From positions 134,171-198,170 of the forward strand of contig JAYUJN010000001.1 in assembly GCA_043765195.1 (NCBI GenBank): a stretch of DNA of 64,000 nt, in the 5' to 3' direction. This document shows positions 2 to 11,005 of this stretch, one piece after another; position 1 is the first letter of the stretch, and every line of letters starts with the position of its first letter. Source of the stretch: Bacteroidota bacterium. Lineage in GTDB: Bacteria > Bacteroidota > Bacteroidia > UBA7662 > JAYUJN01. A program made the translations under genes and the position numbers. The notes under the pieces are model-generated. The model searched no databases. It saw only the letters and a program-made list of their open reading frames with translations, and had not been told where the DNA came from.

Positions 2-598
2 TTGAAGGGCAATTTGAACCCGAGTATTTGGCTGAATTATTTGTTTTTTGAAAAAAATTGTTGGTTGAATTTTAAGGATTTTTACGATTATTACTGGAAA
101 AACAACCAATTTGCCTTAGAAAAACAAGTACCAAACCTAAGCCCAGCGCAGCTAAAAAAAGGCTTGGAGGCTCGCCTGTACCGCACGCAGTTTGGTATGC
201 TTACGGAGTACCATGCTTTTTTTTTGTGTAGGGAGGTTTTTGGGCAAGAAAATGTGCTGCGCCACCCCGATTTGGACCGAATAGGCGTGGATTTTCAAAT
301 ATTTTTTGAGCAGAAATGCCACCACATTCATATCTTTGTGGATACCAAACGGGCGTGGCATTTTAGGCAAATAAAGGCGCAATATAAGAACAGCAACCAG
401 CTCACGGGCATACATATCAATGTGCCGTACAGCCTCGAGGCTAATCGTTTTAACTCGCTGCATTTTTTGCCCAATGGTTTTGGCATTTACCAAAAAAGCT
501 ATTTTGAGTACCTAAAAAACGAACTTTTAGCCCAAAAAATAACCAATGACAACATAATAGCCACTACACAAAACGGATTTATTTATAAAAATGACTGA
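2..598 (+). CDS. Hypothetical protein, possible type II restriction endonuclease partner of the downstream methyltransferase. The 5' end may lie outside the window.
   Basis: The ORF runs from the window edge, where the only start is TTG at 2. Its stop (596-598) overlaps the ATG of the methyltransferase (591) by 8 nt. The segment HPDLDRIGVDFQI could be a PD..(D/E)xQ/K-type nuclease core. I recognise no family. Confidence 0.5.
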   Translation: MKGNLNPSIWLNYLFFEKNCWLNFKDFYDYYWKNNQFALEKQVPNLSPAQLKKGLEARLYRTQFGMLTEYHAFFLCREVFGQENVLRHPDLDRIGVDFQIFFEQKCHHIHIFVDTKRAWHFRQIKAQYKNSNQLTGIHINVPYSLEANRFNSLHFLPNGFGIYQKSYFEYLKNELLAQKITNDNIIATTQNGFIYKND

Positions 599-1616
599 AA
601 ACCAGCACGCAGCCAGCGCCAAGCTATTTAATACCTCGTGCTATGGCTTGCCCCACTTAGCGCAGGGCAGCATAGATGCGCTACTGACCGACCCGCCCTA
701 CGGCATTTCGTACCAAAACAACTACTGGGACAAGGATTTGCCCGACAAACAAATATGGGCAGATGCGCTAAATGTGCTTAAACCTGGCGGTTTTGGGCTG
801 GTTTTTTCGGCGGTGCGCCTCATGCACCGCCTGATGGTGGACTTGGAGGACAGCGGTTTTTTGATAAAAGATGTGCTGATGTGGGGTTTTTTGAACGGAA
901 TGCCTAAGAGCCGCAATGTGGCTCTGGATATAGACAAAGTGCTGGGCGTGGAAAGTGCGGTGGTGGGTACGTACAACTACGTGCAAGGCTATAAAAAAGG
1001 CGGTGCGGAGCATTATTACAACCAAGCTCAAAAGTTAAAATTAGAACCGAAGTCGGAGCTGGGTATGCGCTATGCGGGCGCAGGTTTGGGTATAAAGCCC
1101 GCTTATGAACCCATTATTTTGGTGCAAAAACCCATAGAAAAAGGGCTAACCGTGGCAGAAAATGTGGTAAAATACGGCACGGGCGCACTAAACCTGGAGC
1201 AAACCCGAATGCCGTACCAAGCGGGCGAAGAGGGAAAGGTGGGGCATAATCCGCACCCTTTGGGTAGGGTAACCGCCAATATTTTGCGCACCGATGCGCA
1301 CGAGGACGGCTACGACAAGTTTTTTTTGGTACCCAAGGTGCGGCAGCACAAAGACGATTTTAACCTGCACCCAACCCTAAAACCCGTAGATTTGATGATG
1401 CACCTGACGAAGCTCATTAGTTTTTCGCCGCAGACGATACTCGACCCGTTTATGGGTAGTGGTAGCACGGGCGTGGCGGCTATGGAGCTGCAAAGAAATT
1501 TTGTGGGCTACGAAACAGAAAATGCTTACTACGAAATAGCAAAAAAACGCCTCGAAAACCAACAAAATCCTCCCTCCAAAAAAAACCAAAAAATAGATTT
1601 AACTTTACTTTTTTAG
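591..1616 (+). CDS. Site-specific DNA methyltransferase, beta-class amino-MTase (N6-adenine/N4-cytosine)
   Basis: The catalytic motif TDPPYG is near the N-terminus. HPTLKP and the AdoMet motif DPFMGSGSTG are near the C-terminus, which is the beta-class circular permutation. Confidence 0.9.
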   Translation: MTENQHAASAKLFNTSCYGLPHLAQGSIDALLTDPPYGISYQNNYWDKDLPDKQIWADALNVLKPGGFGLVFSAVRLMHRLMVDLEDSGFLIKDVLMWGFLNGMPKSRNVALDIDKVLGVESAVVGTYNYVQGYKKGGAEHYYNQAQKLKLEPKSELGMRYAGAGLGIKPAYEPIILVQKPIEKGLTVAENVVKYGTGALNLEQTRMPYQAGEEGKVGHNPHPLGRVTANILRTDAHEDGYDKFFLVPKVRQHKDDFNLHPTLKPVDLMMHLTKLISFSPQTILDPFMGSGSTGVAAMELQRNFVGYETENAYYEIAKKRLENQQNPPSKKNQKIDLTLLF

Positions 1617-3009: not shown

Positions 3010-3123
3010 GAGTAAATGCCCGAAAGTAGTAAAAAAACCCGCTTTAAATTGGTGAAAATAACTGACGAAAAAGACCAATTTGAGAAATATATTTGCGGTT
3101 AATTAAATTTTAGATACAATACC

Positions 3124-4659
3124 ATGTTTGAACAAACTTTTAAAAACATAGACGACATTCTTTTTAAAGATGCTGGAGCAGATAGCGAGCTGGATTATAT
3201 AGGGCAAACTTCTTGGGTTATGTTTTTGCGTTATTTGCACGATTTGGAGCAAGACAAAGCCGATGAGGCTGGCTTGATGGGCAAAGGCTACAAACACATT
3301 ATAGATGAAGAATACCGATGGACAAACTGGGCAATGCCCAAAAATGCAGATGGCAAGCTGGATATTCACAAAGCCACAACGGGTATAGATTTGGTGGAAT
3401 TTGTGGATACAAAGCTATTTCCGTATTTGGCGGGGTTTAAACTAAAAACCGACAATCCGCAGACGATTGAGTACAAAATTGGTGAAATTTTTAGCGAACT
3501 AAAAAATAAAATACAAAGCGGATACAGCCTCAGAGACATTATAGAGCTGGCTGACGGCTTGCCTTTTCGCAGTAGCAAAGATAAACACGAACTGAGCCAC
3601 CTGTACGAAACCAAAATAAAAAACATGGGCAATGCAGGGCGAAACGGTGGGCAATACTACACGCCCCGCCCGCTTATACGTGCCATGATAGAAGTAATAC
3701 AGCCCAAAATTGGCGAAAAAATATACGACGGCGCTTGTGGTAGCGGCGGCTTTTTGTGCGAGGCTTTTGACTATTTGACCAAAGACAGACAAGCACTAAG
3801 CACCACCGATTTGCAAACGTTACAAACCAACACTTTTTATGGAAAAGAAAAAAAGAACCTGGCGTATGTAATAGGCATTATGAACATGATACTGCACGGC
3901 ATAGAAGCCCCCAATATTATACACACCAACACCCTTGGCGAAAACATTAGGGACATACAAGAAAAAGACCGCTACCATGTAATATTGGCTAATCCTCCTT
4001 TTGGTGGAAAAGAAAGACCCGAGGTGCAGCAAAATTTTGACATAAAAACAGGCGAAACAGCTTCGCTTTTTTTGCAACATTTTATAAAAAGCCTAAAAAC
4101 TGGCGGACGTACAGCCATTGTGATTAAAAATACTTTTTTGAGCAATAGCGACAATGCCAGCGTAAGCCTGCGCAAGCATTTGCTCGAAACCTGCAACCTA
4201 CACACCGTGCTGGATATGCCAGCAGGCACATTTACGGGTGCGGGCGTAAAAACGGTGGTGCTGTTTTTTACCAAGGGCGAGCCTACCACCAATATATGGT
4301 ATTATCAAATGAATGCTGGGCGTAGCATGGGCAAAACCTCACCCCTGAACGACGACGATATGGCAGAGTTTGTAGCCCTATCCAAGGAAAGGGCTGCCCT
4401 TGCGGCTGCCCCTACGGCTGCCCCTACGGCTGCCCCTACGGCTGCCCCTACGGCAGCCCCTGCGGCTGCCCCCAATACCGATAAAAGCTGGAGCGTAGCT
4501 ATCGCCGACGTGCCAACCCACAACTACGACCTAACCGTAAAAAACCCCAACCAAAAACAAGAGCAGGTGTACCGAAAGATGGAAGATATACTGGCAGAAA
4601 TGCAAATGCTGGACGAAGAAACCAACGAAATTTTGTGGGCTATAAAACAAAAGAGATAA
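3124..4659 (+). CDS. hsdM: Type I restriction-modification system methyltransferase subunit HsdM
   Basis: HsdM_N-like N-terminus. YYTPRPL, motif I DGACGSGGFL and motif IV NPPFGG are present. It is followed by specificity and restriction subunits. Confidence 0.95.
   Translation: MFEQTFKNIDDILFKDAGADSELDYIGQTSWVMFLRYLHDLEQDKADEAGLMGKGYKHIIDEEYRWTNWAMPKNADGKLDIHKATTGIDLVEFVDTKLFPYLAGFKLKTDNPQTIEYKIGEIFSELKNKIQSGYSLRDIIELADGLPFRSSKDKHELSHLYETKIKNMGNAGRNGGQYYTPRPLIRAMIEVIQPKIGEKIYDGACGSGGFLCEAFDYLTKDRQALSTTDLQTLQTNTFYGKEKKNLAYVIGIMNMILHGIEAPNIIHTNTLGENIRDIQEKDRYHVILANPPFGGKERPEVQQNFDIKTGETASLFLQHFIKSLKTGGRTAIVIKNTFLSNSDNASVSLRKHLLETCNLHTVLDMPAGTFTGAGVKTVVLFFTKGEPTTNIWYYQMNAGRSMGKTSPLNDDDMAEFVALSKERAALAAAPTAAPTAAPTAAPTAAPAAAPNTDKSWSVAIADVPTHNYDLTVKNPNQKQEQVYRKMEDILAEMQMLDEETNEILWAIKQKR
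4393..4473. repeat. 12-bp in-frame tandem repeat (gctgcccctacg-like, about 6.5 units) inside hsdM, encoding (AAPT)n
   Basis: Direct reading shows gctgcccttgcg, then gctgcccctacg x4, then gcagcccctgcg, then gctgccccc. It translates to ALAAAPTAAPTAAPTAAPTAAPAAAP. Confidence 0.9.
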
Positions 4660-5438
4660 TGCAAAAACTGCAATTGATAAAAACCGACCTTTTGCCCCAA
4701 TATTTGGAACAACTAACGGGTTTAGAAACCAAGTTTGAAGCCCTGCACGATGCTGAAATAAGCACCGATACCTTTAGTTTTTATACCTCGGTATCTGCTA
4801 TGGCAAGTAGTAAAATAGAGGGCGAATCGCTAGAAATAGACAGCTTTGTAAAGTACAAAATGCTAAATATAGATTACAAAAAAGAAATGGTAGAAAAGCC
4901 AAACGACCTTTATAATGCTTATTTGTATGCTCAAAAAAACGAATTAAGCGAAAAATATTTTTTAAATGCACATAAAATTATTGCTACTCATTTATTAGCC
5001 AAAAACAAACAAGGCAAATACCGTAAAGTAAATATGCTGGTAATGGAGCATAAAACATTTAGGGTACAATATGAAGCAGCACTGTTCGAAGAAGTAAATG
5101 GATTAATGAAAAAACTTTGGCAAGATATTACCACACTAATTAAAGCAAACTTAACCCATGAAGAAGTATTTTATTACGCCTCATTTATACACATTGCTTT
5201 TGTAAATATACACCCCTTTGAAGATGGTAATGGCAGAAGTGGCAGGCTGATAGAAAAATGGTTTATTGCCCAAAAACTGGGCGAAAAAGCTTGGTACCTA
5301 CAAAGCGAATTAAACTATTATAGAAACATAAACGACTATTACAAAAACCTAAACCGATTAGGAATTTTTTATGAACAACTCGACTACACCCAAGCCCTGC
5401 CTTTTTTATTAATGCTACCAAAAACATTTGAACTATGA
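4659..5438 (+). CDS. Fic/DOC family protein (probable AMP-transferase) with an N-terminal inhibitory-helix motif
   Basis: The canonical Fic motif HPFEDGNGRSGR is present. SSKIEG matches the (S/T)xxxE(G/N) autoinhibition motif. The ATG at 4659 overlaps the hsdM stop (TAATG), and the stop overlaps the hsdS ATG (ATGA). The track ORF begins at a GTG at 4635. Confidence 0.9.
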   Translation: MQKLQLIKTDLLPQYLEQLTGLETKFEALHDAEISTDTFSFYTSVSAMASSKIEGESLEIDSFVKYKMLNIDYKKEMVEKPNDLYNAYLYAQKNELSEKYFLNAHKIIATHLLAKNKQGKYRKVNMLVMEHKTFRVQYEAALFEEVNGLMKKLWQDITTLIKANLTHEEVFYYASFIHIAFVNIHPFEDGNGRSGRLIEKWFIAQKLGEKAWYLQSELNYYRNINDYYKNLNRLGIFYEQLDYTQALPFLLMLPKTFEL

Positions 5439-6586
5439 AACAAGATTGGCAAATAAAAAAATTGGGGGAGGTGTGCGATAAGGCTTCTTCTAATGTTTCT
5501 CAAAATAAATTAGAAAATGACAATGGTGAGTATCCAATTTATGGTGCAAGTGGGTTTATAAAAAAGGTTAGTTTTTATCATCAACCAAAACCTTACTTAT
5601 CTATTGTAAAAGATGGCTCGGGTGTGGGTAGAATTACAAAAATGGACGCTTTTACTTCTGTAATCGGTACACTTCAATATATTTTACCAAAAGAAGGAAT
5701 TGATTTAGATTATTTGAATTACTCCTTGATGTCTGTTGATTTTAAAAAGTATGTAGCAGGTGCTGCCATTCCACACATTTATTTTAAAGATTATCAAAAC
5801 GAACCTTTTTTGTGGGTTCCCCTCGCCGAGCAGCAGCGCATCGTAGCGTATTTAAACGATACCTTTGGCAAGCTAAACCAAGCCAAAGCCAATATTGCCC
5901 AAAACCTACACAATGCCAAGCAGCTTTTTGAAAGTGAACTCAATAGAATTTTTACCGAAAAAGGCGATGGCTGGCAAGAGAAAAAGCTGGGGGGAATTTG
6001 TGAAACGGGTGCAGGAGGCACACCATTGAAACAACATAAAAGCTATTATGAAAATGGCAATATACCGTGGCTAAGAAGTGGGGAAGTTTGTGAAAAAGAA
6101 ATTCATAAATCAGAATTAAAAATAACTGAATTGGGTTTAAAAAACTCTTCTGCAAAAATGTTTCCAATAAATACTGTTTTAATAGCAATGTATGGTGCAA
6201 CCGCAGCACAAGTAGGAATTTTAAAATTTGAAGCCTGTACGAACCAAGCAGTTTGTGGAATTTTACCAAATAAAAATTCAATTCCAGAATATATTTATTA
6301 CTGTTTTTTATCAAAAAAAGAAGAATTAATAAGCAAAGCCGTTGGCAATGCGCAGCCTAATATTTCGCAAGAAAAAATTAGAAATACTTCAATTCCGATT
6401 CCACCTCTTGCGACCCAAGAAGCCATAGTTTTGGAGTTAGATGCGCTATCTGCCCACACGAAACAATTAGAAAAAGTGTACCAACAAAAATTAAATAACA
6501 TAGAAGAATTAAAAAAGCGTATATTAGCAGATGTTTTTTCAGTCGGGGCAAGTGTGGGGGCAACCCTTGCGGTTGCCCAAAAATGA
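5435..6586 (+). CDS. hsdS: Type I restriction-modification system specificity subunit HsdS (two target-recognition domains)
   Basis: There are two TRD halves, each followed by a conserved coiled-coil spacer (LAEQQRIVAYLNDTFGKLNQAK... and LATQEAIVLELDALSAHTKQLEK...). The last 14 codons and the stop lie in repeat sequence. Confidence 0.9.
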   Translation: MKQDWQIKKLGEVCDKASSNVSQNKLENDNGEYPIYGASGFIKKVSFYHQPKPYLSIVKDGSGVGRITKMDAFTSVIGTLQYILPKEGIDLDYLNYSLMSVDFKKYVAGAAIPHIYFKDYQNEPFLWVPLAEQQRIVAYLNDTFGKLNQAKANIAQNLHNAKQLFESELNRIFTEKGDGWQEKKLGGICETGAGGTPLKQHKSYYENGNIPWLRSGEVCEKEIHKSELKITELGLKNSSAKMFPINTVLIAMYGATAAQVGILKFEACTNQAVCGILPNKNSIPEYIYYCFLSKKEELISKAVGNAQPNISQEKIRNTSIPIPPLATQEAIVLELDALSAHTKQLEKVYQQKLNNIEELKKRILADVFSVGASVGATLAVAQK

Positions 6587-6790
6587 TAAAGGGGCAACCA
6601 AAGATAAGGGCAACCAAAGATAAGGGCAACCGCAAGGGTTGCCCCCACAGATATACCCAAATGATGAAGATAAGGGCAACCCTTGCGGTTGCCCAAAATG
6701 ATAAAGGGGCAACCGCAAGGGTTGCCCCCACAGATATACCCAAATGATGAAGATAAGGGCAACCCTTGCGGTTGCCCAAAATGATAAATA
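6542..6790. repeat. REP/REPIN-like array: five copies of a 21-nt hairpin (GGGCAACC-CTTGC/GCAAG-GGTTGCCC) in alternating orientation, including an 83-bp unit duplicated in tandem
   Basis: The hairpins lie at 6558-6578, 6624-6644, 6674-6694, 6707-6727 and 6757-6777. Units 6624-6706 and 6707-6789 are identical at 82/83 positions. Two half-sites (gggcaaccaaagataa) lie at 6592-6623. The array sits directly upstream of a RAYT-like gene. Confidence 0.9.
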
Positions 6791-6800
6791 AAATATTAAA

Positions 6801-7322
6801 ATGGCATATAACCCAGCAATTCATCACCGCAGGTCTATCCGACTAAAAGGCTACGACTACTCTCAGGCAGGGCTGTATTTTATAACCATTTGCTGTGAGT
6901 ATAGAACGCACCGTTTTGGAAAAATTGAAAATAGTGAAATGAAATTAAATGAATTTGGAAACATTGCATACAATCAATGGATAAAATTGGCGGAGCGGTT
7001 TGCAAATTTTGAATTAGATGTATTTCAAATAATGCCCGACCATATTCACTGTATAATACTGTTGAATAAAGGTGAAGGTGCAACCGTCGGGGCAACCCCC
7101 ACACTTGCCCCGACGATGGGCGACATTGTAGGGGCATATAAATCGTTGGTATTTAATGAATGTTTGAAAACTTGCAAACTAAAAAACGAAATAATGGGCA
7201 AGCTGTGGCAACGCAATTATTACGAAATTATAATTAGAGATGAACGAGCCTACCAAAACATTGCGAACTACATCATTAATAATCCTGCAAAATGGACGAA
7301 AGGCAAATTTAGCAACCAATGA
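6801..7322 (+). CDS. REP-associated tyrosine transposase (RAYT), IS200/IS605-like Y1 HUH transposase family
   Basis: The N-terminus HHRRSIRLKGYDYSQAGLYFITIC, the HUH motif PDHIHCII and the Tyr motif WQRNYYEIIIRDE match my recollection of the RAYT/Y1_Tnp family. The gene is immediately preceded by the palindromic repeat array. Confidence 0.85.
   Translation: MAYNPAIHHRRSIRLKGYDYSQAGLYFITICCEYRTHRFGKIENSEMKLNEFGNIAYNQWIKLAERFANFELDVFQIMPDHIHCIILLNKGEGATVGATPTLAPTMGDIVGAYKSLVFNECLKTCKLKNEIMGKLWQRNYYEIIIRDERAYQNIANYIINNPAKWTKGKFSNQ
7085..7115. repeat. Perfect 11-bp-stem hairpin inside the RAYT coding sequence
   Basis: CGTCGGGGCAA (7085-7095), loop CCCCCACAC, TTGCCCCGACG (7105-7115). Positions 7096-7114 are the exact reverse complement of 6542-6560 at the hsdS 3' end. 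Confidence 0.9.
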
Positions 7323-9709
7323 ACGAACAAGAAACCAGAACCCAATATATATTACCCGCTTTGCAAAAAGCAGGCTGGGGCATTGTGCAAGGCAGTAGCA
7401 TACGAGAGGAGTTTCCTATATCAAAAGGCAGGCTAATTGGGCATGGGCAGTGCACCAAACCCGACAAAGCCGATTATGTATTGCAATACAAAAACCGAAA
7501 CTTGGCGGTTATAGAAGCCAAAAAAAGAGATTTGTATTATACCGAAGGCGTGGCACAAGCCAAAGATTATGCGGGGCGGCTACAAATTCGGTTTACGTAC
7601 AGCACCAACGGTTTGCAGATTTATGAAATGGATATGCACCAAGGTACGGAGGGCGATGTGTTGGCTTTCCTTAGCCCAGATGAGCTGTGGAACAGAATTT
7701 TTGGCGAAGAAGAAAAAGCAAAACCGCAGGTAGCCAAGTTGCAAGAAAACTTACACAGCATTCCGTTTGAAACCAAAAACTTAACCAAACCGCCCCGTTA
7801 TTACCAAGAAAATGCCATTAACAATGTAAGCCAAGCCATTGCCGAGGGTAAAACCCGCATATTGCTAACCCTTGCCACGGGCACGGGCAAAACAGCCATT
7901 GCTTTTCACATTGCTTGGCGGTTGTTTAAAGCCAAATGGAACATAAAAGGCGACGGACAGCGCAGCCCACGCATATTGTTTTTAGCAGATAGAAATATAT
8001 TGGCAAACCAAGCCTTTAGTTCTTTTAGCGAATACAATGCTTTCGATGAAGATGCCTTGGTGCGTATTAAGCCGAGTGAAGTGAAAAAGAAAGGCAAAGT
8101 GCCTAAAAATGGAAGTATATTTTTTACCATATTTCAGAGTTTTGTTTCTGAAAACAATGGCGAAACAAATTTTGGGCAATACGAAAAAGACTTTTTTGAT
8201 TTTATAATTATAGATGAGTGCCACCGTGGCGGTGCCAGCGACCAAAGTAGTTGGAAAGCCATTTTAGATTATTTTAGCCCAGCCGTGCAATTGGGTTTAA
8301 CGGCAACACCCAAACGAAATCAAAACGTAGATACTTACGATTATTTCGGCGAGCCAGTGTACGTATATTCGCTAAAACAAGGCATAAACGATGGCTTTTT
8401 AACACCATTTAAGGTAAAACAAATAGCCACCACAGGCGATAGCTATATTTATAGCCCTGACGATGAAATAATACAAGGCGAAGTAGAAGAAGGCAGAGAG
8501 TATAACAGAAATGAACAAAACCGAGTAATACAAATCATGGAAATTGAGCGCTATCGGGTTCAAACGTTTATGAACTTGATAGACCAAAACCAGAAAACAT
8601 TGGTTTTTTGTGCCACACAAGCCCACGCTTTGGCAGTGCGTGATTTGATTAATCAGCTTTCAAAAAGTAAAAATACCAACTATTGCCACAGGGTTACGGC
8701 AGACGATGGCGAACGGGGCGAACAACATTTAAGAGATTTTCAGAACAATGAGAAGAATATTCCAACCATACTTACTACATCGCAAAAATTGAGTACGGGC
8801 GTAGATGCACCCGAAATAAGAAATATCATTTTGATGCGACCCGTAAAACAAATCATAGAATTTAAACAAATTATAGGCAGAGGTACTCGGTTGTACGATG
8901 GCAAAGATTATTTTACGATTTATGATTTTGTAGAAGCCTACAAAAACTTTCAGGACGATGAGTGGGACGGACCACCATTAGAACTCGAAACACCAGACTT
9001 GAAACCTGAGCCAAAACAATGCAAAGACTGTGGTCAAAATATTTGTATATGCCTTAAAGAACCAGAGCAGCACTACTGCTTTTGTAACCAAGAGCCTTGT
9101 GTGTGCGATAACCCACAAAAGCGAATGATAAAAATAAAACTGGGCGACGGAAAAGTGAGAGAACTCGATAGTACGGTTAGAACCCTGTTTTATAGTGCCG
9201 ATGGCACGCCAATTAGTAGCGAAGAATATTTGCAAAACTTGTTTGGTGCATTGCCCGAAATTTTTAAAAACGAAGACGAATTAAGAACAATTTGGAGCAA
9301 ACCCGACACAAGAAAAAAATTATTAGAGGAACTGAAAGAAAAAGGATTTGCAGAAGAGCAATTAGAAGCCTTTCAAAAAATATTAAATGCCCAAAATAGC
9401 GATTTATACGATGTTTTGGCGTATGTGGCTTTTAAATCCCCCATTTTAGAAAGAACTGAAAGGGCGAAAAATGCAAGAATACATTTGTATAATTACGATG
9501 CAAAGCAACAGGAGTTTTTAAACTTTGTGTTGAATAAATACGTTGGTTCTGGCGTTTATGAATTAGACGAAGAGAAATTATCGACGCTGCTTATATTGAA
9601 ATACAACGCCATAGACGATGCAAAACAAGTGCTTGGCGACATTGATTTGATTAGAAATACATTCACGGGTTTTCAAACTTATTTATACGGAAAAACGATT
9701 TTGATATAA
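7319..9709 (+). CDS. hsdR: Type I restriction enzyme R subunit HsdR (SF2 helicase/nuclease) with an EcoEI-R-like C-terminal domain
   Basis: N-terminus MNEQETRTQYILPALQKAGW, Walker A LATGTGKTAIAF and the DEAH-box variant IIIDECHRG are present. The ATG overlaps the RAYT stop (ATGA). Confidence 0.95.
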   Translation: MNEQETRTQYILPALQKAGWGIVQGSSIREEFPISKGRLIGHGQCTKPDKADYVLQYKNRNLAVIEAKKRDLYYTEGVAQAKDYAGRLQIRFTYSTNGLQIYEMDMHQGTEGDVLAFLSPDELWNRIFGEEEKAKPQVAKLQENLHSIPFETKNLTKPPRYYQENAINNVSQAIAEGKTRILLTLATGTGKTAIAFHIAWRLFKAKWNIKGDGQRSPRILFLADRNILANQAFSSFSEYNAFDEDALVRIKPSEVKKKGKVPKNGSIFFTIFQSFVSENNGETNFGQYEKDFFDFIIIDECHRGGASDQSSWKAILDYFSPAVQLGLTATPKRNQNVDTYDYFGEPVYVYSLKQGINDGFLTPFKVKQIATTGDSYIYSPDDEIIQGEVEEGREYNRNEQNRVIQIMEIERYRVQTFMNLIDQNQKTLVFCATQAHALAVRDLINQLSKSKNTNYCHRVTADDGERGEQHLRDFQNNEKNIPTILTTSQKLSTGVDAPEIRNIILMRPVKQIIEFKQIIGRGTRLYDGKDYFTIYDFVEAYKNFQDDEWDGPPLELETPDLKPEPKQCKDCGQNICICLKEPEQHYCFCNQEPCVCDNPQKRMIKIKLGDGKVRELDSTVRTLFYSADGTPISSEEYLQNLFGALPEIFKNEDELRTIWSKPDTRKKLLEELKEKGFAEEQLEAFQKILNAQNSDLYDVLAYVAFKSPILERTERAKNARIHLYNYDAKQQEFLNFVLNKYVGSGVYELDEEKLSTLLILKYNAIDDAKQVLGDIDLIRNTFTGFQTYLYGKTILI

Positions 9710-9730
9710 CCTCCAACCCAAAAAAACAAG

Positions 9731-11005
9731 ATGAGTAACGAAACAAAAATAAAATGCCCCAATTGCCACACCGAAATAGATGTGAACAATGTGCTGTCGA
9801 GCCAGGTGAGGGCGGAGCTTCAATCGGAGTTTAGTGCGGGATTTGAAAAGGAGCAAGCCGAACTCAAAAGAAAAGAAGCCGAGCAGGCGAGAAAAGAAGC
9901 GGAGTTTGAGCAGAAACGAGCCAATCAAAATGTGATTTTTCGGGAGCAAGTGGATAAACAGCTCAAAGAAGAACGGAGCGTGCTGGAATTGAGCCTAAAA
10001 ACGAAATATGAAAAAGAAAAATCAGAGGAGTTTTATAGCTTACAAAAAGAACTAAAAGAAAAATCAGAGCAGGTAATAGAATTGAATGCCAGCAAGGCGG
10101 AAATTGAAAGGCTAAAACGAGCCAATGCGGAGGCTAAATCGTTGGCGGATGCCGAAGCCCAAAAAATGATAACCGAAACCTTGAATACTGAAACAGAACG
10201 GATAGAAAAGCAAGTACAAGACAAAAAGGAGTTAGAGATTAATAAGCTGGTAAAGCAACTGGACGACCAAAAAAGGCTGACCGAAGAAATGAAACGCAAG
10301 CTAGAGCAAGGCTCGATGCAGCTACAAGGCGAGGTGCAGGAGCTGGCGATTGAAGGTTGGCTGGCGGATAATTTCCCGCTGGATACCGTTGTGCCAGTGG
10401 GAAAAGGCGTGCGGGGCGGCGATTGCCGCCAGATTGTAAACACAAGGTCCAAAGAAAACTGCGGCACAATATACTACGAGAGCAAGCGCACCAAGGATTT
10501 TGGCAGGGACTGGATAGAGAAATTTAAAAACGACATTCGGGAGCAAAACGCAACCGTGGGCGTGCTTGTAACCACCGCCATGCCGCCAGGCATGGACCGC
10601 CTGGGCTTGCGAGATGGCATCTGGATTTGTAGCTACGAAGAGTTTAAGGGGCTTTGTTTTGTGCTTCGAGAAAACATTATTGCCCTCGACCTCGCCGTGG
10701 CTTCGCAAGAAAACAAGGGCGATAAAATGCAAATGCTCTACGATTATTTGACCAGCAATGAGTTTAAATTGCAGGTGGAGGGCATTATGGAGGGCTACAA
10801 ACAAATGCAAGACGACCTAATTAGCGAGCAACGTGTGATTACGGGAACTTGGAAAAAGCGGGAAAAACAACTGCAAAAAGTGCTGAACAACACCACTTAT
10901 ATGTATAGTTCGCTGCGGGGCATAGCGGGCAATGCCATACAAGCCATAAAATCGCTGGAACTGCCCGAGGCGGAGGCGGAGGATACTGACTTTGAAGAAG
11001 CCTAA
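9731..11005 (+). CDS. DUF2130-like protein: N-terminal CxxC, long coiled coil, and a C-terminal nuclease-like domain
   Basis: IKCPNCHTEIDV lies at the N-terminus, followed by a roughly 200-aa E/K-rich coiled coil. The C-terminal segment GGDCRQIV...GTIYYESKRTKDF..W matches what I recall of DUF2130. The gene starts 21 nt after hsdR. Confidence 0.75.
   Translation: MSNETKIKCPNCHTEIDVNNVLSSQVRAELQSEFSAGFEKEQAELKRKEAEQARKEAEFEQKRANQNVIFREQVDKQLKEERSVLELSLKTKYEKEKSEEFYSLQKELKEKSEQVIELNASKAEIERLKRANAEAKSLADAEAQKMITETLNTETERIEKQVQDKKELEINKLVKQLDDQKRLTEEMKRKLEQGSMQLQGEVQELAIEGWLADNFPLDTVVPVGKGVRGGDCRQIVNTRSKENCGTIYYESKRTKDFGRDWIEKFKNDIREQNATVGVLVTTAMPPGMDRLGLRDGIWICSYEEFKGLCFVLRENIIALDLAVASQENKGDKMQMLYDYLTSNEFKLQVEGIMEGYKQMQDDLISEQRVITGTWKKREKQLQKVLNNTTYMYSSLRGIAGNAIQAIKSLELPEAEAEDTDFEEA

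Follow-up and report, generated by a model that had tools for sequence, protein, structure and literature searches.

The type I restriction-modification (R-M) operon at positions 3,124 to 11,005 of a 64,000-nt stretch of contig JAYUJN010000001.1 from a Bacteroidota bacterium (the window, meaning this whole stretch) carries three genes in addition to hsdM, hsdS and hsdR, and these encode a Fic protein, a REP-associated tyrosine transposase (RAYT) and a DUF2130 protein. Analysis of the window and of relatives of each passenger makes it probable that the three genes are independent single-gene cassettes which have accumulated in an R-M operon of type IB and are expressed by read-through, with no integrated system being formed. 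The passengers proved to be independent of one another and of hsdR, and each family recurred in defence contexts without being obligately tied to them.

An earlier note on this DNA, made from the letters alone, had described six co-oriented genes on the plus strand joined by overlapping or minimal junctions. The open reading frame (ORF) list and the profile searches bore this out, and all family assignments held, including those tested with the Fic, Y1_Tnp and DUF2130 profiles. Reading the sequence directly gave the junctions exactly as they had been claimed, that is, TAATG at 4657-4661 for hsdM/fic, ATGA at 5435-5438 for fic/hsdS, ATGA at 7319-7322 for RAYT/hsdR, and a gap of 21 nt (9710-9730) between hsdR and the DUF2130 gene. 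The 214-nt interval between hsdS and RAYT (6587-6800), which is occupied by an array of hairpins, is the sole real spacer of the operon, again as the earlier note had it. The start codon of fic is the ATG at 4659, and a GTG at 4635 lies in the open frame too. The host genes gave strong matches. HsdM matched N6_Mtase (5.3e-60) and HsdM_N in Pfam, and MTase_I in PADLOC (1.7e-158); HsdS, encoded in the same operon, matched Methylase_S (6.5e-46) in two stretches that correspond to two target-recognition domains; and HsdR reached 789.9 bits over residues 1-790 with the NCBIfam EcoAI/FtnUII equivalog NF046051 (cut-off 550) and contained ResIII, Helicase_C and EcoEI_R_C domains. The host locus is an ordinary EcoAI-type (type IB) R-M operon, probably an active one, and the genome around it is probably that of a member of the Chitinophagaceae. 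Coordinates of all features are collected in Table 1.

The Fic protein matched PF02661 at 1.5e-14. Its active-site motif HPFEDGNGRSGR, at residues 185-196, fits HxFx(D/E)GNGRxxR, and H185, F187, D189, G190, N191, G192, R193 and R196 were invariant in the Fic alignment (A1), in agreement with the earlier description of the catalytic motif as intact. The same chain carries an N-terminal inhibitory motif of the type (S/T)xxxE(G/N), S50-S51-K52-I53-E54-G55, whose columns S50, S51, I53, E54 and G55 were also invariant in A1 and which aligns with TSAIEG of 8cil. An invariant active site together with an invariant SxxxEG assigns the protein to the class II, self-inhibited Fic proteins, and its PDB profile and fold matches were indeed class II members (CbFic2, FICD, SoFic and BT_2513). 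PADLOC matches were to SoFic (3e-23) and to the embedded-candidate family PDC-S04 (3e-14). We propose that Fic would act as an autonomous, self-inhibited AMP-transferase-type toxin of class II, an abortive-infection effector resembling SoFic and not latched by the R-M complex.

A different view of Fic, put forward in the earlier note, takes the anticodon nuclease PrrC as its model: Fic, and perhaps the DUF2130 protein, would be kept latent in the type I R-M complex and freed as an abortive-infection toxin by phage anti-restriction. The PrrC precedent, the intact catalytic motif and the position of fic between hsdM and hsdS, which it overlaps by 1 nt and 4 nt, are points in its favour. The Fic family comprised 4728 proteins at E <= 1e-5, the top 120 of them with at least 65% identity, and we surveyed the gene neighbourhoods of 80 genome loci of relatives. 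Eight of these lay in type I R-M operons, with tight junctions there too, which also speaks for a guarded effector; the other 72 stood outside R-M, next to genes for porins, DUF2851, RNase T, 2-oxoglutarate dehydrogenase and the like. The embedded members occurred at different positions of both type IB and type IC operons (Table 1), and such variation argues against a specific protein-protein interface. They were also scattered in a neighbour-joining tree, where parsimony counted at least seven state changes for eight members. The nearest relative of all (L166, 88% identity) was a solo gene, recovered from a metagenome sample that also carries the window locus. Its DNA homology to the window is restricted to 4640-5440 and ends at the borders of the Fic ORF, so that Fic seems to move as a one-gene cassette. 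Finally, with an inhibitory motif of its own, the protein would need no partner for latency. The claim that Fic is guarded by R-M was therefore not sustained by its relatives.

Embedding of about 10% of the Fic relatives, which is far above chance, supports a putative defence-type role by what has been called 'guilt by embedding'. Sister Fic-bearing type I R-M operons also carry genes for PDDEXK_3 proteins (sometimes two), a 23S-rRNA-IVP/bAvd-like protein and a YhcG/DUF1016 nuclease, and these extra passengers indicate that accretion is the rule in operons of this kind. On the L166 contig a 36-codon ORF (948-1058) has a 4-nt overlap with the stop codon of Fic, as hsdS has in the window; it might be what is left of an hsdS gene or else a small partner gene.

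The DUF2130 protein matched PF09903 at 2.8e-67 (227.2 bits, gathering score 26.7). Its N-terminal CxxC/zinc-ribbon-like element is followed by a long helix (residues 18-193) and then by a PD-(D/E)XK-like core at the C terminus, and DUF2130 has been classified in the PD-(D/E)XK superfamily (PMC3424549). D231, E250 and K252 were invariant in alignment A2, and the D...(D/E)xK signature is thereby kept. The order of secondary structure elements in the AlphaFold2 (AF2) model fits alpha-beta-beta-beta-alpha-beta, but the pLDDT of this core was <55. Foldseek found no match in the PDB at E <0.09, the weak top matches being Cas4, a splicing endonuclease and DXO; a PDB sequence search returned nothing meaningful, and PADLOC v2 contained no match beyond a weak coiled-coil one to LmuB (6e-5). 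Publications in our literature search mentioned DUF2130 incidentally, and none of them did so in a defence context.

We surveyed 80 metagenome loci of DUF2130 relatives as well. Roughly a quarter of them lay beside varied defence genes, with HerA/SIR2, AAA_13, OLD-like, type I R-M and several other systems directly upstream (Table 1), and in 18 of 55 cases a same-strand upstream gene ended no more than 30 nt before the DUF2130 start. Proximity to type I R-M was seen in 3-7 of the 80; LysR, META and methyltransferase genes were neighbours at other loci. Judged from this gene context, DUF2130 appears to behave as a defence-island gene added 3′ of varied systems and not as an accessory of type I R-M. 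A natural experiment is provided by the relative L167, in which the order is a RAYT gene (48% identical to that of the window), ATGA, a 23-codon ORF and DUF2130. The short ORF (456-527, MNEQETSTEYIYQTYLYRKTIFT and a stop codon) fuses the first 11 hsdR codons (MNEQETSTEYI) to the last 12 (QTYLYRKTIFT and the stop), and it is what a clean in-frame deletion, with a loss of ∼2.3 kb, left of the gene. The DUF2130 gene behind it is intact (92% identity), and the downstream GFO gene is 98% identical. DUF2130 was thus retained without the restriction subunit, which argues already against its dependence on R-M, and the RAYT-hsdR junction predates the split of the strains. We suggest that DUF2130 is a coiled-coil PD-(D/E)XK protein that has repeatedly been appended to unrelated defence operons and is probably an independent defence-island nuclease.

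These results also speak against DUF2130 as an R-M-guarded effector, since it outlives the loss of hsdR and mostly accompanies systems other than R-M. PrrC homology was equally lacking, with no match to PrrC or AAA_13 for either Fic or DUF2130 in Pfam or PADLOC. What stood of the comparison with PrrC is that tight, co-oriented embedding and the SoFic and PDC-S04 matches hint at defence; the obligate linkage to R-M failed. Taken together, a latent toxin held by the R-M complex is rather unlikely. The trio also failed to reappear elsewhere. The Fic-bearing R-M loci of the Fic survey had neither RAYT nor DUF2130, no locus of the DUF2130 survey had RAYT, and the architecture with all three genes was not conserved at other loci. 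We rejected a conserved Fic-RAYT-DUF2130 module, as no other surveyed locus paired any of these passengers within a single R-M operon. The combination, of which the earlier note knew no described example, is a new one, unmatched in the surveyed loci; it is a lineage-specific product of accretion in one lineage and not an undescribed system, and both R-M embedding and a defence effector of the Fic type are already known. Our literature search found no description of this Fic subfamily, nor of a Fic-in-type-I-R-M architecture like this one.

The third passenger matched Y1_Tnp at 3e-6 (27.8 bits, cut-off 23) and the NCBIfam model REP_Tyr_transpos at 1.8e-18 (66.8 bits, under the cut-off of 80), with IS200 far lower at 22.2 bits; by these scores it is RAYT-like and would belong to a divergent lineage. 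The HUH motif (HIH, in PDHIHCII) and the catalytic-tyrosine motif RNYYE (in WQRNYYE) were conserved in alignment A5, and relatives are annotated as 'REP element-mobilizing transposase RayT'. All nine RAYT relatives that we looked up had the same orientation as the gene directly before them; seven stood behind housekeeping genes and two inside other type I R-M operons. A scan of viral contigs gave no RAYT relative, and nothing was found in the literature on RAYT together with R-M. A very recent one-off insertion of RAYT was discarded as an explanation, because the RAYT of L167, only 48% identical, meets hsdR at the same RAYT-ATGA-hsdR junction.

The hairpins preceding RAYT have the form GGGCAACC-N5-GGTTGCCC and alternate in orientation, four of them lying in the spacer and the fifth within the 3′ end of hsdS. 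The pattern occurred 11 times against 0.03 expected, an 83-bp hairpin doublet unit is present twice with 100% identity, and the RNA of the array folds with -135.8 kcal/mol (z = -12.2). Relative to RAYT, five intact hairpins stand 24-243 nt upstream, one degenerate copy is inside the ORF (7085-7115) and none is downstream. The first hairpin repeat (repeats D3 and I1) encodes the C-terminal 13 residues of HsdS (GASVGATLAVAQK) as well as the stop codon of the gene (6545-6586), and the PADLOC Specificity_I matches on HsdS stop at residue 368-370. The hairpin-encoded tail indicates that the RAYT/hairpin insertion overwrote the original 3′ end of hsdS. RAYT relatives carry the hairpin, often as the identical 21-mer GGGCAACCCTTGCGGTTGCCC, in frame within the RAYT ORF just past the HUH motif, ∼280 nt from the start, where it encodes VGATLAVA(P/Q); the variable number of these units accounts for protein lengths of 167-260 aa. 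No dispersed copy of the hairpin was detected within the window, and in 180 loci it was confined to RAYT genes, so that a classical REP population is not demonstrated by the window or the flanks of these loci. We propose that RAYT and its hairpins represent a domesticated HUH single-stranded DNA transposase which habitually sits directly downstream of a co-oriented host gene. Here its insertion would have written over the stop codon of hsdS, and it adjoins the start codon of hsdR.

The number of 83-bp doublets varies between contigs. Two copies are present in the window (6624-6788) and in L002, and one in L001 (11966-12060) and L003 (6634-6728); the contigs are otherwise identical, and two more, L004 and L005, are broken within the array. 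The difference could be real variation or an assembly collapse of the repeat.

With regard to expression, the candidate -7 box TATATTTG, located 28 nt 5′ of the hsdM ATG, is the only intergenic plus-strand match between 3009 and 11088 to TAnnTTTG, which we take to be the promoter consensus of Bacteroidota. A lone intergenic box in front of hsdM is compatible with a single operon and is no proof of one. Four further plus-strand matches fall within operon genes (3386, 5860, 6426 and 9480), at about the chance rate. A scan for sigma-70 promoters and terminators was dropped, because its counts equalled those obtained with shuffled sequence and its model does not apply to Bacteroidota. All passengers are co-oriented with the host genes and have no obvious promoters of their own, which makes read-through from the hsdM promoter the most likely route of expression; read-through in turn would explain the overlapping or minimal junctions. 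The tight translational coupling that the earlier note had seen in these junctions, like a single transcript, is an inference; stop/start overlaps are ordinary in operons. The very stable hairpin array may damp or buffer the expression of RAYT, hsdR and DUF2130 relative to hsdM-fic-hsdS.

A stronger version of this last idea is that the array is itself the point of the arrangement, acting as an mRNA barrier or attenuator that keeps HsdR below HsdM and HsdS, and/or that Fic modifies an Hsd subunit, with restriction alleviation in a new host as the outcome. The array does lie exactly between the modification genes and hsdR, its fold is very stable, no T-run follows the hairpins on the plus strand (terminator-like matches are on the minus strand only), and its copy number differs among otherwise identical strains. 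RAYT moreover occurs in three further type I R-M contexts, in one of which (L181) it stands again between hsdS and hsdR. Set against this, RAYT in L170 lies between hsdM and hsdS and not ahead of hsdR, the hairpin of relatives is usually within the RAYT ORF and not in a spacer, most of the sampled relatives (7/9) are outside R-M operons, nothing ties Fic to Hsd proteins as substrates, and one versus two array copies could be assembly collapse. We regard a dedicated regulatory function as improbable. Equally improbable are irrelevant passengers that are tolerated, or shielded because selection acts against imprecise deletions in an R-M operon. Points for this view are that only this lineage has the combination, other surveyed loci having no passenger pairs in one R-M operon, that the hsdS stop codon was overwritten when RAYT inserted, and that relatives show decay of R-M, with hsdR deleted in L167 and split in L006. 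Against it, all three passenger ORFs are intact with conserved catalytic residues and are identical on contigs from several separate assemblies, each family is large and highly conserved with >60% identity across Bacteroidota families, and each is met in defence contexts clearly more often than by chance.

Accretion of independent cassettes is the reading that we prefer, and several observations weigh against it. The four intragenic TAnnTTTG matches leave room for internal promoters. AF2 is weak where it is key, as both the Fic N-terminus and the DUF2130 core have pLDDT <55; in the Fic model the core is good, residues 29-80, whose inhibitory helix would be expected over the site of the ATP gamma-phosphate, have pLDDT <50, and the class II fold matches were obtained at a TM score of only ∼0.4. 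Fic reached 33.8 bits with the NCBIfam SoFic equivalog NF046030, whose cut-off is 550, and its PADLOC SoFic match spans only profile positions 46-242 of 361. The protein is thus distant from the validated SoFic, and a defence activity would be an extrapolation. Embedding of ∼10% of relatives could also mirror a functional interaction between Fic and R-M in the embedded members. Most relatives of Fic and of DUF2130, lastly, are found among housekeeping-looking genes, with which roles other than defence are also compatible.

RAYTs are usually regarded as housekeeping-like domesticated transposases. Four embedded RAYT alleles (window, L167, L170 and L181) cover three R-M families, and a Bacteroidota RAYT lineage with an in-frame hairpin might conceivably have a real, repeated and non-accidental partnership with type I R-M, an idea that we hold to be unlikely, if somewhat less so than the other alternatives. 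Were it true, the hairpin/RAYT module might set the ratio of HsdR to HsdMS expression, or mobilise and shuffle hsd modules, and DUF2130 would be a companion lead as an uncatalogued defence nuclease piggy-backing on many systems. A RAYT lineage that recurs in R-M operons and has a hairpin inside its own ORF could also inform RAYT substrate recognition and persistence.

The same locus is present on contigs of several separate assemblies with 99-100% protein identity. A type II R-M pair lies next to it, upstream of hsdM, and marks the region as a defence island; its RE_TaqI annotation was found on the identical contig L002. In the strain variant L001 (3147-5805) the TaqI-like endonuclease is missing, and its place is taken by a DDE transposase and a GmrSD-type gene. 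The surroundings are a defence island that is variable between strains. GC content was 0.35 across fic and hsdS (4500-6500) versus 0.44-0.50 in the flanking genes, a dip consistent with a foreign origin or with frequent exchange of this segment.

Table 1. Features of the window and of loci that carry relatives of its passenger genes
Feature	Location	Strand	Detail
hsdM, type I methyltransferase subunit, 511 aa	3124-4659	+	N6_Mtase, HsdM_N, PADLOC MTase_I
fic, class II Fic protein, 259 aa	4659-5438	+	PF02661, HPFEDGNGRSGR, SSKIEG S50-G55
hsdS, specificity subunit, 383 aa	5435-6586	+	Methylase_S, two stretches
REP-like hairpin array	6545-6788	.	five hairpins, alternating orientation, 83-bp doublet unit twice
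Array hairpins	6558-6578, 6624-6644, 6674-6694, 6707-6727, 6757-6777		
Array half-site repeats	6592-6631		
RAYT, REP-associated tyrosine transposase, 173 aa	6801-7322	+	Y1_Tnp, REP_Tyr_transpos, HUH and Y motifs
hsdR, type IB (EcoAI family) restriction subunit, 796 aa	7319-9709	+	NF046051
DUF2130 protein, 424 aa	9731-11005	+	PF09903
Candidate Bacteroidota -7 promoter box TATATTTG	3088-3095	+	28 nt 5′ of hsdM ATG; TAnnTTTG scan
Type II R-M pair: TaqI-like endonuclease (cut by window start) and N6_N4 methyltransferase (591-1616)	2-1616	+	N6_N4_Mtase 2.3e-30
Embedded Fic, order M-Fic-S	L006, L007		
Embedded Fic, order M-S-Fic-R	L016, L031, L042, L029		L029 is type IC (EcoR124_C HsdR)
Embedded Fic, order Fic-R	L061		
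Embedded Fic	L021		hsdR remnant only
Other passengers of Fic-bearing R-M loci	L016 4823-5218; L031 945-1337, 2603-3034; L029 8124-8528, 10824-11249; L006 11068-12168		
HerA/SIR2, directly upstream of DUF2130	∼9 loci (L090, L098, L114, L112 among them)		here and in the following DUF2130 rows, upstream genes often <=30 nt away
AAA_13, directly upstream of DUF2130	3-4 loci (L110, L116, L152)		
OLD-like AAA_15-TOPRIM, directly upstream of DUF2130	L159		
nSTAND3-Mrr, directly upstream of DUF2130	L111		
RhuM, directly upstream of DUF2130	L101		
Schlafen/AlbA_2, directly upstream of DUF2130	L120		
AAA_23, directly upstream of DUF2130			
RAYT in R-M, 66% identity	L170-L172		hsdM-RAYT-hsdS-hsdR
RAYT in R-M, ∼74% identity	L181-L182		hsdM-hsdS-RAYT-32aa-RhuM-hsdR
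Hairpin inside RAYT ORF	window 7085-7115; L170 4512-4616; L173 6282-6312; L177 5286-5308; L183 670-690; L175 5293-5313		window copy degenerate

Three known groups of genes offer counterparts to the single passengers. SoFic, a class II Fic protein, is reported to be a validated anti-phage defence protein that acts by AMPylation-mediated abortive infection (PMC11514479, which refers to Millman et al. 2022; PMC12249575). The window Fic shares with it the Fic fold, HxFx(D/E)GNGRxxR, the N-terminal (S/T)xxxE(G/N) and the occurrence as a single-gene module in varied contexts; in contrast to SoFic, it is only 259 aa long, is without the C-terminal domain and belongs to a separate Bacteroidota subfamily. 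DUF2130 resembles the PD-(D/E)XK nucleases of defence islands (PDDEXK_3, YhcG) in its D...ExK signature and in adjoining defence genes, and differs from them by a single long helix of ∼175 residues and by the N-terminal CxxC element. As a large, conserved and uncharacterised family, DUF2130 is a reasonable candidate for defence screens. REP/RAYT systems of Proteobacteria were reportedly treated by Nunvar in 2010. These systems are also known as REPtron/REPIN (Bertels & Rainey, PMC3116915, PMC5581495). Like them, the window has an HUH Y1 transposase of the RAYT clade with GC-rich palindromes arranged as inverted doublets. Unlike them, its hairpins are one-sided and undispersed in the 64-kb window and the flanks of the 180 loci, the hairpin of its relatives is in frame in the RAYT ORF, and the gene itself resides inside an R-M operon.

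As for the operon as a whole, the Campylobacter rlo genes are another case of a type I R-M operon with embedded accessory genes. Embedded genes are common in type I R-M, 'guilt by embedding' is a recognised hint of defence, and PrrC is found almost only as an embedded gene of type I R-M systems (Payne et al., bioRxiv 10.1101/2024.01.29.577857); PMC3458546 likewise describes prrC as always linked to an R-M locus. None of the window passengers is obligately linked to R-M in this way. The likeness to operons such as EcoprrI with its PrrC lies in co-oriented extra genes between the hsd genes, some for defence and some for mobility, and in the match of the window Fic to PDC-S04, while the difference is that the trio was conserved nowhere else in our surveys. 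The new leads are modest and consist of the defence neighbourhood of DUF2130, the repeated presence of RAYT in operons for R-M, and a hairpin that lies within the ORF of RAYT itself; the locus as a whole is a further example of the known pattern by which immune operons gather extra genes.

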